Source: a virus | Lineage: Duplodnaviria; Heunggongvirae; Uroviricota; Caudoviricetes | Reading direction: 5' to 3' (one strand) | Virus record (IMG/VR): IMGVR_UViG_2529292997_000008 | Location: 1-38,707 of that record | Length of the DNA stretch: 38,707 nt | Part shown: piece by piece, positions 4,176-25,173 of the stretch | Layout of the letters: each line of letters begins with the position of its first letter | How positions within the stretch are numbered: position 1 is the first letter of the stretch | Translations under genes and position numbers: made by a program | Notes under the pieces: model-generated | The model's database searches: none | What the model was told of the DNA's origin: nothing | The model's input: the letters and a program-made list of their open reading frames with translations, nothing else

Positions 4176-4277
4176 TTATGGATTGATAAGAAGGAACAAA
4201 CCGCCGAACAAAGCGACGTTAACAGCGATTGCAGCAGCGATGGCAAAGGCCAGGGCGAAAACGTGTTTACCGTCCAT
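4176..4277 (-). CDS. small hydrophobic peptide (33 aa, single predicted TM helix)
   Basis: MDGKHVFALAFAIAAAIAVNVALFGGLFLLINP; ATG with GAGAGGA RBS; not in track (<60 aa). Confidence 0.3.
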   Translation of the reverse strand: MDGKHVFALAFAIAAAIAVNVALFGGLFLLINP

Positions 4278-8987: not shown

Positions 8988-9212
8988 ATGATCGAAGATA
9001 AAGAAGTTGACAATGAAATTCCTGACGGCGCTGATGAACTTATCACTTTCGGTGGCGGGCTGTACGAGTTTGAAACGTCGGCTGGGTGGACGGATAAGTG
9101 GCCTTTCCCAACGCGCCAGGAATTAAGCGTTCGTAAATCATTTGGCGAAGATGCCGAACGGCTGGCTAATAACAAGTGGCTTAATAAGTTTATTGCGGAG
9201 GGTGGCAAATGA
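8988..9212 (+). CDS. hypothetical protein
   Basis: 74 aa; GAGG RBS. Confidence 0.5.
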   Translation: MIEDKEVDNEIPDGADELITFGGGLYEFETSAGWTDKWPFPTRQELSVRKSFGEDAERLANNKWLNKFIAEGGK

Positions 9213-9322
9213 ACCTTGCAAAAATTGCCGCATTGCTTGCGGCTTTGTCTATCGCTGTGCTGTATCTCAGCGCATCTCTTTATATCACGGCAGCGATCAT
9301 TAAACTCATTACTAACATGTGA
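9209..9322 (+). CDS. small hydrophobic peptide (37 aa)
   Basis: MNLAKIAALLAALSIAVLYLSASLYITAAIIKLITNM; GGAGGGTGG RBS; ATGA overlap with upstream stop. Confidence 0.4.
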   Translation: MNLAKIAALLAALSIAVLYLSASLYITAAIIKLITNM

Positions 9323-9330
9323 GGCCAATT

Positions 9331-9450
9331 ATGAAAGTCGGTAAGGATATTGTGACTGTCGCGTTTTGCATTATTTGCTTCCTGTTTGTGTTTGTTTCTT
9401 GTGGCGCATTTGCTGCGCTGGTTAGCTTTATTTTCAGAGGGTTGCTGTGA
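9331..9450 (+). CDS. small hydrophobic peptide (39 aa)
   Basis: MKVGKDIVTVAFCIICFLFVFVSCGAFAALVSFIFRGLL; GAGG RBS; stop overlaps next start. Confidence 0.4.
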   Translation: MKVGKDIVTVAFCIICFLFVFVSCGAFAALVSFIFRGLL

Positions 9451-11180: not shown

Positions 11181-11273
11181 ATGGACGATACATTGTTTTA
11201 TATGTGCTGTTTCTGGGGTTTTATTGCCTTATACCTGTTTATCAGGTGGTTTATTGAATACCATATGAGGTAA
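11181..11273 (+). CDS. small hydrophobic peptide (30 aa)
   Basis: MDDTLFYMCCFWGFIALYLFIRWFIEYHMR; GAGG RBS. Confidence 0.3.
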   Translation: MDDTLFYMCCFWGFIALYLFIRWFIEYHMR

Positions 11274-22000: not shown

Positions 22001-22201
22001 ATGTTCGACAAAATACGGGCGGCGTGCGCTTATGTAACAGGGACCGTAACCGCTTTTTTTGGTGCGATAACCATTAATGACGTTGCCGTCTTTGTGGGTA
22101 TCTTATCAACCATTGGCACATTTGCCGTTAACTATTACTTCAAATCACAGGAGAACAAGCGAGCGCAAGAGGAACACGACGCACGAATGGGGAATAAGTA
22201 A
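22001..22201 (+). CDS. holin, class II / pinholin-like
   Basis: 66 aa; two TM segments, charged C-terminus; immediately precedes SAR endolysin. Confidence 0.75.
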
Positions 22202-22202
22202 C

Positions 22203-22694
22203 ATGATTAGCCAATCGCTAAAGAATAAAATTATTGCTGCGGCGGCTGGTGGGGCTATCGCTATTGCGGCTGTGATGGTTAAACCATTGGAAGGCGTGGA
22301 ATATGATCCTTATCGTGATGTTGTCGGTGTATGGACTGTTTGCCACGGTCACACCGGAAAGGACATCATGCTTGGTAAGACTTACACGCAATTTGAATGC
22401 GATGCTTTGTTGAACAAAGATCTACACAAAACCGCAAAAGCGATTGACCCATATATCAAAGTCGAAATATCAGATTTTACCCGCGCAGCACTTTATTCAT
22501 TCGCCTATAACGTAGGCGCAACCAACTTCAAAACATCAACCTTATTAAAGCTACTTAATGACGGCAAGAAATCGGAAGCGTGCGCACAGCTTAAACGCTG
22601 GGTATACGCTGGCGGTAAGAAGTGGCAAGGCCTGGTTAACCGCCGTGATATTGAATATGCCGTTTGCGAATGGGGTGAAACATGGACAAGGTGA
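22203..22694 (+). CDS. SAR endolysin (phage lysozyme, R21-like)
   Basis: Trimmed to MISQSLKNK; Gly/Ala-rich SAR segment then [34 protein letters not shown], near-identical to phage 21 lysozyme core as recalled. Confidence 0.9.
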
Positions 22695-23152
22695 AGACGT
22701 TAATCATCGCCGTTGTTGTTTGCATTATTGCCGGGCTTACCGCCGTAACGTGTTATTACCAGGGTGAGGCGGCAAGGTTACAGGAAGAAGTCACGGTGAC
22801 GAAAGGCGCACTAAAAACAGCAAGTAACACTATCCAGCAGATGAAGGAGCGAAACGCCGAACTGTCAAAACTTGATAAGAGGTATCACGATGAGATTAAA
22901 GCTATCAGATCTGACATTGCCGATCTTCGCGCTGGCATTGATAGCGGTGCTATCAGGTTGCACGTCAACGCCGAGCCAGTGTACGTGCACGACGCCACCG
23001 GAACCGCCAGCAGCATTAATGGAGCCACCTGTAGACTTACTGCCAGTGCTCAATCAAATTATCTATCCCTCAGAGAACAACTAAAAGAGAAAGACGCGAA
23101 GATCACCGGATTACAGGACTACATCAAAACGCAGTGCATACGCAAAGAATAA
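22682..23152 (+). CDS. Rz: Rz-type i-spanin
   Basis: 156 aa; N-terminal TM helix then coiled-coil periplasmic domain; overlaps endolysin end. Confidence 0.8.
22890..23084 (+). CDS. Rz1: Rz1-type o-spanin lipoprotein embedded in Rz (+1 frame)
   Basis: Lipobox LSGC, proline-rich mature region; wholly inside Rz. Confidence 0.7.
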   Translation: MRLKLSDLTLPIFALALIAVLSGCTSTPSQCTCTTPPEPPAALMEPPVDLLPVLNQIIYPSENN

Positions 23153-23420
23153 CAGCGCGCGGACGTGTCGCCGTTTCCGCCAGCCAGCCATAACCGGGCC
23201 AATCCTTCCCGCGAGCGACAGCGGAAATTCAAAAACACGTAATACCGGATCAACAGTCCCATTAACAGGTCGGGCGCTACCTGGGTAGAAGAAAGCGCCA
23301 TTCACCAATTTTATAAAATTCTGGAAACGGTACTGATGAAGCGCCGTTCTCAGTGTTTTATGTCATTCCTGCCGCTGTATAAACAGGAAGTAAAAGCAAA
23401 CCAGACAGGAGATTATTCTG

Positions 23421-23993
23421 ATGGCTAAGGCTAAAGGCATTAAGTTGCCTCAATTCAAAGTCCCGCTCTTTGAGCATACAACCGTTTTCTTTTGCCCGAC
23501 CCGCGAGATGTTCTATGAATTTTGCGAAAAGGCCGGAATACCAATCGAACCTGATTTCGAACTAGCTGGCGGTCTGACGTTAACCTGTACTGGTGAGACC
23601 GGCGGTAATTTCTACGTGATCGCAGTATTCAACAATGAGACTGGAACGCTGGTCCATGAATGCGCTCACACTACATTCCACGTTTTAAGTGATGTAGGCG
23701 TCGTGGCGACCACTGATCCTACTCATCCTGCGAATGAGACTTACGCTTACATGGTTGGACGTATCTTTGACGCATTCTTCCCAATCCTGGCTGAATCAAA
23801 CGAAGCACAGATCACAGCGATGCAGGCGGCTGAAGTCGTTGAGCAGGCGTTAGAAAAGGCAGAGCAGGCGACTGATGCAGCAGAACAGGCAGAGGAGCCG
23901 AAAGAAGAGAAAAAACCAGCTAAGAAAGGCAAACGTAAGCCGAAAGCAAAAGAGGCGCTTGTACCGCGCGTTATGAGCTTTAAGAGAGGGTAA
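23421..23993 (+). CDS. HExxH-motif protein with Ala/Glu-rich linker and Lys-rich tail
   Basis: 190 aa; LVHECAHTTFH zincin-like motif; C-terminal KKPAKKGKRKPKAK; GGAGA RBS. Confidence 0.55.
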   Translation: MAKAKGIKLPQFKVPLFEHTTVFFCPTREMFYEFCEKAGIPIEPDFELAGGLTLTCTGETGGNFYVIAVFNNETGTLVHECAHTTFHVLSDVGVVATTDPTHPANETYAYMVGRIFDAFFPILAESNEAQITAMQAAEVVEQALEKAEQATDAAEQAEEPKEEKKPAKKGKRKPKAKEALVPRVMSFKRG

Positions 23994-23995
23994 TT

Positions 23996-24064
23996 ATGTT
24001 TACTTTTCTGTTAGGCGTATTTGTTGGCATAGCTGCCGCTGTGATCTTGATATACGGACATTGA
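23996..24064 (+). CDS. micro-ORF 1 of tandem array (22 aa, single TM helix)
   Basis: MFTFLLGVFVGIAAAVILIYGH; GAGGG RBS. Confidence 0.4.
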   Translation: MFTFLLGVFVGIAAAVILIYGH

Positions 24065-24068
24065 TATT

Positions 24069-24173
24069 ATGGATGCTTACATCATCGCCGGATTAATCGG
24101 CGTTTCTGTGTTTCTTGTGGGTTCTATTATAGTTGCGCTGATAAACGTATATATCAAGTATTTGGTGGGGTGA
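24069..24173 (+). CDS. micro-ORF 2 (34 aa, single TM helix)
   Basis: MDAYIIAGLIGVSVFLVGSIIVALINVYIKYLVG; weak GGA RBS. Confidence 0.4.
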   Translation: MDAYIIAGLIGVSVFLVGSIIVALINVYIKYLVG

Positions 24174-24178
24174 AAAAT

Positions 24179-24253
24179 ATGATTGACCCGCTAATTATCC
24201 TTTCTGCCTGCGTCGCTGTATGGCTGGCGATCATGATATTCATTGAAAGCTGA
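24179..24253 (+). CDS. micro-ORF 3 (24 aa, single TM helix)
   Basis: MIDPLIILSACVAVWLAIMIFIES; GGTGGGG RBS. Confidence 0.4.
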   Translation: MIDPLIILSACVAVWLAIMIFIES

Positions 24254-24264
24254 AGGTATCCACA

Positions 24265-24345
24265 ATGAACGCATACGAAATGCTATTGCTGGTGGCTGTT
24301 ATTACAGTTATTGCCGTAGATGTTTATCGGGAGTTTAAAAAATGA
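24265..24345 (+). CDS. micro-ORF 4 (26 aa, single TM helix)
   Basis: MNAYEMLLLVAVITVIAVDVYREFKK; GAAGG RBS. Confidence 0.4.
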   Translation: MNAYEMLLLVAVITVIAVDVYREFKK

Positions 24346-24410
24346 AATGGCTTGATTTCTTTTTCCTGATCGTTGCGATTGTTCTCACTATGACAGCGCT
24401 TGCTCAATAG
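24342..24410 (+). CDS. micro-ORF 5 (22 aa, single TM helix)
   Basis: MKWLDFFFLIVAIVLTMTALAQ; GGGAG RBS; ATGA overlap. Confidence 0.4.
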   Translation: MKWLDFFFLIVAIVLTMTALAQ

Positions 24411-24418
24411 GTGAAAGC

Positions 24419-24493
24419 ATGAACGCTATTGATATTATGTTGATCGTGTGTACCGTTGCATTAGTTATTATTGGGGTGATTATCAATGTCTGA
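24419..24493 (+). CDS. micro-ORF 6 (24 aa, single TM helix)
   Basis: MNAIDIMLIVCTVALVIIGVIINV; AGGTGA RBS. Confidence 0.4.
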   Translation: MNAIDIMLIVCTVALVIIGVIINV

Positions 24494-24554
24494 TGGTGAT
24501 TTCTTAATCATGGCTATATGCACGCTGTTAACTGTTATTGTTTTCTTCGCGTAA
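24486..24554 (+). CDS. micro-ORF 7 (22 aa, single TM helix)
   Basis: MSDGDFLIMAICTLLTVIVFFA; GGGGTGA RBS; overlaps ORF 6 stop. Confidence 0.4.
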   Translation: MSDGDFLIMAICTLLTVIVFFA

Positions 24555-24563
24555 AGGTAAACA

Positions 24564-24647
24564 ATGAAAGAATTATTCGATTGGTTGGAAGTATTAACAT
24601 ACTGTGCAAGTTTTGTTGCTTGCGTATATATCATCAATAAATATTGA
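24564..24647 (+). CDS. micro-ORF 8 (27 aa, single TM helix)
   Basis: MKELFDWLEVLTYCASFVACVYIINKY; AAGG RBS. Confidence 0.4.
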   Translation: MKELFDWLEVLTYCASFVACVYIINKY

Positions 24648-24657
24648 GAGGTGAATT

Positions 24658-25173
24658 ATGGCCCGCACTAAAAAGGCAAAAGCTGACGACAAAAAGCCAG
24701 CCGCAAAAAGGGTGGGCCGTCCGCATGGTTATACCGAAGAAAAGGCGTTAGAAATCTGTGAACTGGTGGCGGACGGTCAGAGCGTTAACAAAATTTCGAA
24801 GATGCCTGGTATGCCTACCCGTTCAACAATCCTGAAATGGTTTAGAGACGTGCCGGAATTCTCGGACATGTACATGCGCGCGAAGGAAATCGGCTTCGAG
24901 GTATTAGCTGATGAGATCCTCGATATAGCTGATGATGCTAAGAACGTTGATAAAGACCAACTACGCCGCCACCAATTAATGATTGAAACGCGTAAATGGT
25001 TATTGGCTAAGCTACAACCGCGCAAATACGGCGAACGCGTCACACAGGAGATCGTCGGTAACAAGGAAGAAGCACCCGTCCAGGTAGAAGTAAATCAGAC
25101 TACTGTCCTTGAGATAATCGATAACCTGAATAAGGAGTACAATACTCATGGAGACTGCGACGACAAAGATTGA
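24658..25173 (+). CDS. terS: terminase small subunit (Sf6/P22-like HTH type)
   Basis: 171 aa; pattern GRP..Y....IC..V..G.S..KI.KMPGMP..ST...W.......Y..A.E......EI..IAD.A......TRKW.LA...PRKYG matches Sf6-type small terminase as recalled; GAGGTGA RBS. Confidence 0.8.
   Translation: MARTKKAKADDKKPAAKRVGRPHGYTEEKALEICELVADGQSVNKISKMPGMPTRSTILKWFRDVPEFSDMYMRAKEIGFEVLADEILDIADDAKNVDKDQLRRHQLMIETRKWLLAKLQPRKYGERVTQEIVGNKEEAPVQVEVNQTTVLEIIDNLNKEYNTHGDCDDKD

Follow-up and report, generated by a model that had tools for sequence, protein, structure and literature searches.

Does the apparently intergenic gap ahead of the terminase small-subunit gene (terS) in mEp021-like phages encode anything and, if so, what might its products do? 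The window analysed here, a 38,707-nucleotide stretch of viral DNA (positions 1 to 38,707 of IMG/VR record IMGVR_UViG_2529292997_000008), is a mEp021-like (mEpimmI) temperate Escherichia coli phage or prophage; mEpimmI phages are tailed siphoviruses that are assembled in the cytoplasm and that match lambdoid phages in prevalence among isolates from the human gut (PMC11893012). An initial annotation had claimed eight tandem micro-ORFs at window positions 23996-24647, and all eight were found there on the + strand, arranged head to tail (22, 34, 24, 26, 22, 24, 22 and 27 codons), each opening with ATG and together covering 93% of the slot that separates a 190-aa gene from terS (Table 1). We are highly confident that these ORFs are real membrane-peptide genes, and we lean towards reading them as a polycistronic battery of eight micro-genes whose membrane peptides would be made late and would modulate the membrane or lysis.

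Table 1. Micro-genes of the array and neighbouring genes, with positions in the window; occurrence refers to the 69 arrays compared.
Feature	Product	Position	Strand	Occurrence and remarks
Holin, HP1/P21 class		22001-22201		Family match
Upstream gene, mEp021 gp49 homologue	190 aa	23421..23993	+	Invariant HExxH motif; PHROG 1365 match
Micro-gene 1 (family A)	22 aa, MFTFLLGVFVGIAAAVILIYGH	23996..24064	+	32/69 arrays; pN/pS 0.38; SD -8.8 kcal/mol
Micro-gene 2 (family B)	34 aa, MDAYIIAGLIGVSVFLVGSIIVALINVYIKYLVG	24069..24173	+	60/69 arrays; pN/pS 0.24
Micro-gene 3 (family C)	24 aa, MIDPLIILSACVAVWLAIMIFIES	24179..24253	+	66/69 arrays; pN/pS 0.26
Micro-gene 4 (family F)	26 aa, MNAYEMLLLVAVITVIAVDVYREFKK	24265..24345	+	68/69 arrays; pN/pS 0.21
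Micro-gene 5 (family H)	22 aa, MKWLDFFFLIVAIVLTMTALAQ	24342..24410	+	63/69 arrays; pN/pS 0.16
Micro-gene 6 (family I)	24 aa, MNAIDIMLIVCTVALVIIGVIINV	24419..24493	+	48/69 arrays; pN/pS 0.18
Micro-gene 7 (family J)	22 aa, MSDGDFLIMAICTLLTVIVFFA	24486..24554	+	Intact in 43/69 arrays; pN/pS 0.33
Micro-gene 8 (family M)	27 aa, MKELFDWLEVLTYCASFVACVYIINKY	24564..24647	+	69/69 arrays; pN/pS 0.22
Terminase small subunit terS (Sf6-type)		24658..25173	+	Pfam PF20901, E = 1e-37

The stop of the 190-aa gene and the ATG of ORF 1 are separated by 2 nt, successive units follow at junctions of +4, +5, +11, -4 (an ATGA overlap), +8, -8 and +9 nt, and terS starts 10 nt after the end of ORF 8. The -4 overlap, in which the ATG of micro-gene 5 overlaps the stop of micro-gene 4, is kept in relatives, and the 8-nt overlap lies between micro-genes 6 and 7. 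A Shine-Dalgarno (SD)-like run had been claimed ahead of every ORF; pairing with the anti-SD at the 16S 3' end is indeed strong for ORFs 1, 3, 5 and 7 (-6.0 to -8.8 kcal/mol; for example, GGGGTGA at -6.8 kcal/mol ahead of micro-gene 3) but only modest for ORFs 2, 4, 6 and 8 (-3.2 to -3.9 kcal/mol), against a mean of -2.4 kcal/mol for all ATGs of the window. Across all micro-ORF copies in the relatives described below, the mean duplex energy is -5.0 kcal/mol, and 93% of the junctions in their arrays are either overlapping (33%, with ATGA overlaps recurring) or have a spacer of 0-15 nt (60%). Read from the DNA, every unit is shown to have its own ATG, together with an SD or an overlap of start and stop codons with the adjoining unit.

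The products share a simple design. As initially described, each has a single hydrophobic stretch, here measured as one uncharged apolar run of 13-23 residues (GRAVY 0.78-2.43; maximum KD17 1.9-3.3), and the hydrophobic moment is low (0.02-0.25, that is, a non-amphipathic helix); the helix is of sufficient length to cross a bilayer, although the most marginal segments are those of peptides 4 and 8, with runs of 13 and 15 residues. N-terminal residues 2-7 comprise 24 acidic versus 5 basic residues, and the last seven residues comprise 8 acidic versus 17 basic, the basic C-termini being short in some units (REFKK, KYLVG, INKY) and missing in others. From this combination of an acidic N-terminus, a helix and often a basic C-terminus, the positive-inside rule predicts an N-out/C-in inner-membrane peptide, a prediction for which only a handful of charged residues is available (the net flank charge is zero in peptides 1 and 5). 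Similar peptides had also been pointed out elsewhere in the window, and these do exist, except that 9209-9450 proves to hold two tandem ORFs (37 and 39 aa) rather than one.

Tiling of this kind was never matched in 2000 dinucleotide-preserving shuffles (mean of 2.0 hydrophobic ORFs, maximum of 6; maximum coverage of 81%), and the minus strand of the slot holds no such hydrophobic ORFs. The array region has a G+C content of 0.38 versus 0.46 for the window because 56% of its bases at codon position 2 are T. A promoter and terminator scan of the array returned counts equal to the shuffle expectation (7 promoter-like sites versus 7.0 expected). The one terminator-like hairpin in the array (24086-24102, inside ORF 2) was rejected, as it is not kept in 60 family B alleles. 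At a permissive E-value, no Rfam family reached its gathering score between 23000 and 25300; an S15 leader match at the ORF 8/terS junction (24605-24686; 22 bits versus a gathering score of 39.5, E = 0.029) was treated as chance. Tandem or dispersed DNA repeats in the region did not go beyond short chance pairs.

For comparison, we assembled 69 copies of the slot (57 distinct DNA sequences), comprising 7 isolated phages, 15 E. coli prophages, 46 IMG/VR contigs and this window. They hold 634 intact micro-ORFs in approximately 19 peptide families, all of which keep the acidic N-terminus and TM helix design, and only about 9 damaged copies; conservation of the frames in related phages, which the initial annotation had named as a check, is thus borne out, the frames being intact rather than broken by frameshifts or stops. 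The order of families is strictly collinear, (A/a2/a3/a4)-B-n-C-D-y-E-F-G-H-I-J-K-L-M, with whole cassettes present or absent, yielding 40 architectures of 3-13 units per phage; the slot accordingly varies by entire cassettes from 318 to 1154 bp, with a median coding fraction of 92%, and whole cassettes have been gained or lost among otherwise close phages. Families C, F, H and M are near-universal, M is always the final unit, and family C (micro-gene 3) is the best conserved, its peptide being nearly invariant across arrays. One relative is reduced to A-B-M only and, as cassette content ranges from 3 to 13 units, most units would be individually dispensable. Wherever family I occurs, J or what remains of it comes next, and J is never seen without I; five additional J copies lack an ATG. 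Arrays end at most 10 nt before terS, or before a polar ORF that precedes it (an extra polar ORF of 47 aa lies ahead of terS in some relatives), and a fused multi-TM version of the array occurs in no relative examined.

The region was found in 34 of 5,426 complete E. coli genomes, and tblastn of family M against 50,697 phage records recovered only the seven mEpimmI phages, with peptides M, B and L giving nothing outside this group in the same records. Among 185,579 species-representative genomes, a degenerate pattern for peptide C produced 0 matches and terS-based locus retrieval produced 0 relatives. These searches bound the known distribution, and unrelated arrays may exist elsewhere.

The synonymous bias that real genes should display, another of the checks proposed at the outset, is evident: the pooled in-frame pN/pS is 0.237, compared with 1.04 and 1.24 when the identical alignments are read in the two other frames, and it lies at 0.16-0.38 for every family with at least four alleles. 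Substitutions at codon positions 1, 2 and 3 number 173, 140 and 400, and 52% of amino-acid replacements stay within AVILMFWC. The flanking genes are approximately 2.4-fold more constrained (0.10 versus 0.24; 0.100 for the 190-aa gene and 0.10 for terS). By this comparative evidence, each unit is shown to be a conserved frame whose amino-acid sequence is under purifying selection.

Similarity between families exceeded that of shuffles in 16 of 210 pairs (0.4 expected). Family F (ORF 4) is related to family I (ORF 6; z = 6.5) and is paralogous to n, D and I, and family H is paralogous to G, K and h2, whereas family B (ORF 2) groups with A and a3 rather than with F or I; of the paralogy first suggested for ORFs 2, 4 and 6, the link between ORFs 4 and 6 therefore stands and ORF 2 drops out. 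As repeats are absent at the DNA level, any amplification must be ancient, and on these comparisons several of the peptide families are ancient paralogues.

That the units would be missed by standard callers was foreseen correctly: the slot stays unannotated in prophages processed with PGAP, the mEp021 genome carries no feature there in its manual annotation, and a collection of 15 billion proteins lacks six of the eight peptides in their exact form. The exact micro-gene 2 peptide occurs on 174 contigs, labelled 'hypothetical protein'. No family in Pfam, NCBIfam, PHROG, PADLOC or Rfam was matched at curated thresholds, and the micro-peptides matched neither holin family models (Pfam, NCBIfam and PHROGs) nor PADLOC defence models at E-values up to 10, nor Pfam toxin families, nor DUF2730 (releasin). 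The best type I toxin candidate, NF047374 CD_typeI_toxin, was hit by peptide 1 alone and was discarded at 11.6 bits, the cut-off being 60. In the literature, the peptide strings appear in no paper, and the mEpimmI genome paper (PMC11893012) does not discuss the region or its ORFs.

The genomic surroundings offer a possible setting for such peptides. Upstream lies a lysis cassette with the holin of Table 1 and an endolysin whose N-terminus is SAR-type, both within 22001-22694, and with a lipoprotein ORF embedded in Rz; a pinholin system made up of an HP1-family holin and a SAR endolysin has been described experimentally (PMC7312051), and ancillary single-TMD N-out/C-in proteins encoded a few genes from a SAR endolysin can control its release (for example, Mu releasin; PMC9239132). 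Between this cassette and the array lie the 190-aa gene and a spacer of 268 nt, in which terminators are predicted in relatives. In P22-like phages, a homologue of the 190-aa gene occupies the same slot and micro-ORFs are absent; any link between the array and the HExxH gene is therefore not obligatory.

Because the units lie on the same strand, no spacer is longer than 11 nt, and promoter and terminator signals rise no higher than chance, we infer that the array would be co-transcribed with the 190-aa gene and terS in the late (lysis to packaging) message, and the micro-genes are probably late co-transcribed products. Ribosomes would translate the units in relay, and the peptides would insert into the cytoplasmic membrane N-out/C-in, as other tiny phage and bacterial membrane proteins do. 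Late in infection, they may tune inner-membrane energisation or helix-helix interactions; as pinholin/SAR-endolysin lysis depends on both, the peptides could serve as lysis-timing or membrane-conditioning accessories. Taken as a whole, we consider this reading to have a somewhat better than even chance of being correct. A role in lysis timing specifically is a more tentative suggestion, given that the tie to the holin and endolysin is one of proximity.

The alternative that survives best, albeit as an unlikely one, is that the peptides are moron-like host-conversion factors, expressed in the lysogen or early, that block the entry of superinfecting DNA or modulate host membrane proteins, in the way that bacterial small membrane proteins act on kinases, transporters and respiratory complexes. 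The 40 architectures, variable between close relatives, resemble those of accessory or conflict loci, and the slot itself is plastic: an HNH insertion sits at this post-lysis, pre-terS position in mEp013, the polar 47-aa ORF appears in some relatives and a GIY-YIG nuclease lies at a comparable place in epsilon34. Moreover, regulation of larger membrane proteins is a common task of small proteins with one TM helix (PMC12648545), and Lpp lipoproteins that act in exclusion are already known from mEpimmI phages (PMC11893012). However, promoter-like sites in or before the array are at chance level, only 2 and 10 nt separate the array from the late-type genes on either side, PADLOC matches are absent, and the core families C, F, H and M are present in nearly all phages and are not fast-evolving.

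We regard it as rather improbable that the peptides are depolarising agents of the type I toxin kind (Ibs, Ldr, TisB or Hok), which would collapse the PMF for host shut-off or lysis triggering, or stabilise the prophage post-segregationally. PMF collapse is the established trigger of pinholin/SAR lysis, and this explanation overlaps mechanistically with the late membrane role favoured here. At 22-34 aa, with a single very hydrophobic helix and minimal flanks, the peptides resemble the smallest type I toxins, some of which are prophage-borne (PMC12648545). Yet no curated toxin-family threshold in Pfam or NCBIfam was reached, and the units are polycistronic and head to tail with spacers of approximately 0-11 nt rather than stand-alone loci with long structured 5' UTRs. 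Minus-strand ORFs are absent, and neither antisense promoters nor terminators rise above chance (minus-strand promoter-like sites are at chance level and no minus-strand terminator lies within the array, in a consensus scan that is weak for sRNAs). Finally, 8-13 different lethal toxins on one message would be hard to square with productive late expression.

It is very improbable that the array acts chiefly in cis, with coupled tiny cistrons keeping ribosomes on the message (thereby preventing Rho-dependent polarity or setting terS translation) and the peptides as by-products. The very tight junctions, the invariable end of the array within 10 nt of terS or its preceding polar ORF and the terminal unit M in all arrays would fit such a role, but a relay would need neither the amino-acid selection seen in frame (pN/pS 0.24, versus approximately 1 out of frame) nor the acidic N-terminus and TM design common to all families, and as few as 3 or as many as 13 units suffice in relatives. 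A non-genic origin (chance ORFs in AT-rich DNA, a pac or cos site, a structured RNA or a decayed polytopic membrane-protein gene), to which the low G+C, the sub-threshold S15 leader match and the silence of gene callers might point, is effectively refuted by the comparative data, as the tiling was reached in 0 of 2000 shuffles, starts and stops are kept under frame-specific purifying selection, variation of slot length by whole cassettes is incompatible with a fixed packaging site, and neither a fused multi-TM relative nor an Rfam family or repeat was found; the initial annotation had named such a pac/cos or structured element as a refuting outcome.

Returning to late-made membrane peptides, a bolder and frankly speculative extension is that the array represents a hitherto unrecognised type of accessory locus in phages, a combinatorial 'micropeptide battery'. 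Its bare TM helices, translated together, would associate with one another (the obligate I-J pair being an example) or with membrane proteins of the phage or the host, and cassette turnover between close relatives would re-tune a membrane process such as the lysis clock, competitor exclusion or evasion of membrane-based defences. If true, no denser cluster of functional genes of fewer than 35 codons would be known from a tailed phage, and the locus would offer a natural setting for learning how minimal TM helices acquire specific functions. Genes of under approximately 30 codons are systematically invisible, and here eight (up to 13 in relatives) occur in less than 1.2 kb with evolutionary proof of function, adding approximately 19 new micro-protein families; a stretch that looks 'intergenic' in the curated annotation of phages and prophages can thus be 92% coding, which argues for re-annotating phage genomes by comparative, selection-based micro-ORF detection. 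As the phages are isolated, infect K-12 and are inducible, the array also provides a tractable test bed for the part that bare TM helices may play in infection and in tuning the lysis clock.

Several known systems share features with the array. Bacterial small membrane proteins (50 aa or fewer; for example, AcrZ, KdpF, CydX and MgtS) are alike in size, single helix, minimal flanks and missed annotation, and insertion that is YidC/Sec-assisted or unassisted is likewise expected (PMC12648545). They are, however, scattered single genes or lie in the operon of the complex that they regulate, whereas here eight units (up to 13 in relatives), unrelated or anciently paralogous, are chained head to tail in a phage late region, and they have no sequence family in common with the array peptides. 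Type I toxins (IbsC of 19 aa, TisB, LdrD and Hok) are also very short hydrophobic single helices, some prophage-borne and some multi-copy (PMC12648545). The array differs in being polycistronic with translational coupling, in having no antisense RNA antitoxin signal and in matching no family. TisB-like toxins, in addition, are amphipathic, unlike the low-moment array peptides.

Single-TMD accessory proteins of lysis that neighbour a SAR endolysin are a further parallel; they comprise Mu releasin (gp25, DUF2730; PMC9239132) and antiholins or additional holin-like proteins, for instance P1 LydC and LydD (PMC9025707). Encoded a few genes 3' of the endolysin, with an N-terminal TM segment, a predicted N-out/C-in topology and a late inner-membrane action, they resemble what is proposed here. 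At 99 aa, releasin nevertheless requires a 73-aa cytoplasmic domain for function, whereas the array peptides (22-34 aa) are essentially bare helices. Genes VII and IX of filamentous phages encode membrane-inserted minor coat proteins of approximately 32-33 aa with overlapping start and stop codons, and are alike in being tandem, coupled genes of approximately 30 codons with one inner-membrane helix each; these are virion parts of a membrane-extruded phage and number only two, compared with 3-13 units in tailed siphoviruses. The staphylococcal psm-alpha operon, with four tandem peptide genes of 20-22 codons that each have their own ribosome-binding site, likewise places consecutive micro-cistrons of approximately 20 codons on one transcript, but its products are amphipathic secreted cytolysins (muH of approximately 0.44 for PSM-alpha3, versus 0.02-0.25 here) encoded on a Gram-positive chromosome, whereas those of the array are predicted to be non-amphipathic helices of a phage that infects E. 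coli.

Listing all open reading frames (ORFs) of at least 20 codons in window 23700–24950, we recover, with exactly the coordinates of the initial annotation and on the plus strand, the eight tandem ATG-initiated micro-ORFs that it had described, and their placement between a lysis cassette and the terminase is correct, because genes for an HP1/P21-class holin, a lysozyme and Rz lie upstream, with the terminase small subunit gene (terS) downstream. From ORF 1 to ORF 8 the junctions are +4, +5, +11, −4, +8, −8 and +9 nt; the stop of the upstream 190-aa gene is 2 nt from the start of ORF 1, and ORF 8 ends 10 nt before terS. The resulting slot (that is, the interval between the 190-aa gene and terS) measures 664 bp and is 93% covered by the eight ORFs, each with a GRAVY above 0.7; 2,000 shuffles that preserve dinucleotide composition yielded on average 2.0 ORFs of this kind, at most 6, and covered no more than 81% of the slot. 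No comparable ORFs occur on the minus strand of the slot. The low G+C content of the array region (0.38 versus 0.46 in the window) is accounted for by second codon positions that are 56% T, as is characteristic of sequences coding for hydrophobic peptides. Anti-Shine–Dalgarno (SD) pairing is strong at ORFs 1, 3, 5 and 7 (−6.0 to −8.8 kcal/mol) and modest at ORFs 2, 4, 6 and 8 (−3.2 to −3.9 kcal/mol), against a background of −2.4 for all window ATGs; re-initiation is plausible at the ORFs with weaker SD, which start 4–11 nt past the preceding stop.

Micro-ORFs, flanking genes and lysis genes, with coordinates in the window
Feature	Coordinates	Strand	Remarks
Micro-ORF 1 (family A)	23996–24064	+	22 aa, ATG
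Micro-ORF 2 (family B)	24069–24173	+	34 aa, ATG
Micro-ORF 3 (family C)	24179–24253	+	24 aa, ATG
Micro-ORF 4 (family F)	24265–24345	+	26 aa, ATG
Micro-ORF 5 (family H)	24342–24410	+	22 aa, ATG
Micro-ORF 6 (family I)	24419–24493	+	24 aa, ATG
Micro-ORF 7 (family J)	24486–24554	+	22 aa, ATG
Micro-ORF 8 (family M)	24564–24647	+	27 aa, ATG
Upstream 190-aa ORF	23421–23993	+	borders slot 5′
terS	24658–25173	+	Pfam Sf6_terminase, E = 1e-37; borders slot 3′
Holin	22001–22201	+	66 aa, two TMDs; matches HP1 and P21 holin families
Endolysin (lysozyme)	22203–22694	+	Gly/Ala-rich N-terminus, typical signal-anchor-release (SAR) domain
Rz	22682–23152	+	contains embedded lipoprotein ORF
Rz1-like lipoprotein ORF	22872–23084	+	embedded in Rz; LSGC lipobox
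Micro-ORF	9209–9322	+	37 aa, hydrophobic, strong SD (−10.0 kcal/mol)
Micro-ORF	9331–9450	+	39 aa, hydrophobic, strong SD (−5.6 kcal/mol)

By megablast, the region matches the mEp021-like (mEpimmI) temperate coliphages MagusPhagus, mEp010, mEp013, mEp021, mEp044, mEp515 and mEp554; among 5,426 complete E. coli genomes, 34 carry it in prophages, and the 190-aa gene is found on 46 IMG/VR contigs. Our comparison set of 69 arrays (57 distinct sequences) comprised seven phage, 15 prophage and 46 viral-contig loci plus the window, with the slot delimited in each as the interval from the 190-aa gene to terS (318 to 1154 bp). The same type of ORF tiles each slot (median coverage 92%), giving 634 intact micro-ORFs (3–13 per array, median 9) that cluster into about 19 peptide families. 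Across all 69 arrays the order of units is invariant, (A/a2/a3/a4)-B-n-C-D-y-E-F-G-H-I-J-K-L-M, and the arrays vary only in which whole cassettes they carry, in 40 architectures, the window being A-B-C-F-H-I-J-M. Families M (69/69), F (68/69), C (66/69) and H (63/69) form a near-universal core; I never occurs without J or a J remnant beside it, and the paralogs G and K never share an array. By tblastn of peptides M, B and L, no phage outside the mEpimmI group carried them among 50,697 phage records; in 185,579 species-representative genomes, a degenerate pattern for peptide C and locus retrieval by terS found no relatives.

Relatives also carry other elements in the slot. In mEp013 (locus L006, 2033–2518) the 190-aa gene is separated from the array by an inserted HNH endonuclease gene, which marks the slot as a plastic insertion site. 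Some relatives have an extra highly acidic, polar ORF of 47–48 aa (MNDEELKIADEIRKALDSAENNET...) after the final micro-ORF and ahead of terS (L011 2233–2379, L012 2460–2603, L013 2479–2622; hypothetical according to PGAP), which the window lacks. Arrays without cassettes I and J contain a 59–69-nt non-coding spacer with a conserved hairpin, GGACGCGCATTTTATGCGCTTCC (about 2420–2488 in L003 and L005; the H-to-M spacer in L004 and L006).

The coding claim withstood a search for broken frames, in which all arrays were queried by tblastn for family copies outside intact in-frame ORFs, with alignment run-throughs removed: against the 634 intact copies, about nine damaged ones were found in the 69 arrays. 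These include a J allele without ATG at five loci, two D copies (one frameshifted, one with ATG changed to ATA), the remains of a J unit in an array with only A-B-M left and an n copy with a Leu codon in the start position. Frames are thus overwhelmingly preserved, with occasional decay as expected of dispensable accessory genes. Counting changes along minimum-spanning trees of codon-aligned unique alleles, we obtained a pooled pN/pS of 0.237 (Sd = 702, Nd = 596), and 0.16–0.38 in each family with at least four alleles. In the first 23 loci, changes at codon positions 1/2/3 numbered 173/140/400, and shifted readings of the same alignments gave 1.04 (frame +1) and 1.24 (frame +2), with many stop codons. 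As the ratio is far below 1 only in frame, the peptides are constrained at the amino-acid level, about 2.4-fold more weakly than the neighbouring genes (by the same method, 0.103 for terS and 0.100 for the 190-aa gene). Replacements within AVILMFWC make up 52% (most frequently I/V, A/V and F/L), so the hydrophobic helix is preserved.

All eight window peptides have a single uncharged apolar run of 13–23 residues and low helical hydrophobic moments (0.02–0.25); they are uniformly hydrophobic, not amphipathic. Among 21 family representatives, residues 2–7 include 24 acidic and 5 basic residues, and the last seven 8 acidic and 17 basic, from which the positive-inside rule predicts an N-out/C-in orientation, weakly so for peptides 1 and 5, whose flanks carry no net charge. 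Openings are formulaic (M-[DN]-[AI]-Y-x-[LMI] or M-[KRS]-x-x-D-F), and local alignment beats 1,000 shuffles (p ≤ 0.002) in 16 of 210 family pairs (0.4 expected), with related groups {F, n, D, I, y}, {G, K, H, h2} and {A, a3, B, E}. This similarity between families, together with the lack of any DNA-level repeat in the array, indicates ancient duplication and divergence. Of the paralogy proposed initially for ORFs 2, 4 and 6, the relationship of ORFs 4 and 6 holds, and ORF 2 belongs to another group.

Standard callers do miss these genes: PGAP leaves the slot empty of micro-ORFs in all prophages inspected. In the E. coli O157:H7 LSU61 prophage (L010, 1447–1836) it calls a 390-nt minus-strand 'hypothetical protein' across the array, probably spuriously, given the conserved plus-strand ORFs. 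In the mEp021 record, which was curated by hand, no feature is annotated from gp49 to terS; some of the units do appear in PHANOTATE and Pharokka records, with boundaries partly unlike the conserved ORFs. By exact look-up among ~15 billion proteins, no entry matches six of the window's eight peptides and peptide 4 is present once; peptide 2 and the relatives' longer E and L units are present on 50–170 contigs as 'hypothetical' or 'putative membrane' proteins. The peptide strings occur in none of 8 million full-text papers, the mEpimmI genome paper (PMC11893012) does not mention the region, and searches of Pfam, NCBIfam, PHROGs and PADLOC gave no match to any peptide at the curated cut-offs.

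Similar peptides had also been noted elsewhere in the window. At 9209–9450 there are two tandem hydrophobic micro-ORFs rather than one; the DNA of the pair is 88–92% conserved in six mEpimmI phages. In mEp021 it falls between gp22 and a 'putative toxin-antitoxin system subunit', in a stretch with an annotated terminator but no annotated gene. At 4176–4277 there is a hydrophobic 33-aa minus-strand ORF (MDGKHVFALAFAIAAAIAVNVALFGGLFLLINP), preceded by a good SD and situated where the long ORFs on either side leave a gap; its DNA is conserved in 7/7 related phages. At 11181–11273 (+) there is indeed a 30-aa ORF (MDDTLFYMCCFWGFIALYLFIRWFIEYHMR), but it is less hydrophobic and falls below the GRAVY filter.

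The lysis cassette (window 22001–23152, +) is of the pinholin/SAR type, in which membrane de-energisation is needed for endolysin release and lysis. The pairing of an HP1-type holin with a SAR endolysin is reported to form a pinholin system (PMC7312051). As the array shares its strand with, and tightly abuts, the 190-aa gene and terS, it would most simply belong to a late message with both; the peptides would be made late, then inserted into the inner membrane, and we suggest that they may act there by tuning membrane energisation or the transmembrane-helix interactions that set lysis timing. We offer this lysis-timing role tentatively. The array is not immediately next to the lysis genes: the 190-aa gene and a 268-nt non-coding spacer (23153–23420, between Rz and that gene) separate the two, and intrinsic terminators are predicted in the equivalent spacer of relatives (mEp021 TERM_6, mEp013 T11); a consensus scan found none in the window spacer. 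The large variability in cassettes would fit a role in exclusion or conflict equally well, and exclusion or host modulation by the peptides is conceivable, if unlikely. Toxin-like depolarisation, which overlaps mechanistically with the lysis-timing proposal, appears improbable.

Purely cis-acting ('ribosome relay') or non-genic readings are very improbable; a relay would leave the peptide-level selection unexplained. No Rfam family reaches its gathering score in the array region; a ribosomal S15 leader at the ORF 8 end/terS start (24605–24686, +; 22 bits versus a gathering score of 39.5, E = 0.029) was judged a chance match. Promoter-like and terminator-like sites occur only at shuffle frequency, and relatives do not conserve a hairpin that lies within ORF 2. 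A fixed pac/cos element is ruled out by the threefold variation in slot length, and the absence of a fused multi-TM ORF in any relative argues against a decayed polytopic gene.

The coding interpretation is therefore strongly supported, and the units are very probably real membrane-peptide genes: a collinear, lineage-specific battery of micro-genes that encode bare transmembrane helices. Neither annotated nor described, the battery falls outside every curated family searched, and its function is experimentally tractable. The upstream gene product is probably a small zinc-metallopeptidase-like protein. Its N-terminal 125 residues have a homolog in P22-like phages, Orf129 (ST64T, L, epsilon34 gp70 and HK620 hkcC). 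These phages have Orf129 in the same post-lysis, pre-terS slot, but a 134-aa gene comes next and there are no micro-ORFs; association of the array with the 190-aa gene is not obligatory. Small single-TM proteins of phages and bacteria are known, and in phage Mu the SAR endolysin's release is controlled by an accessory single-TMD protein (N-out/C-in) whose gene lies just downstream (PMC9239132).
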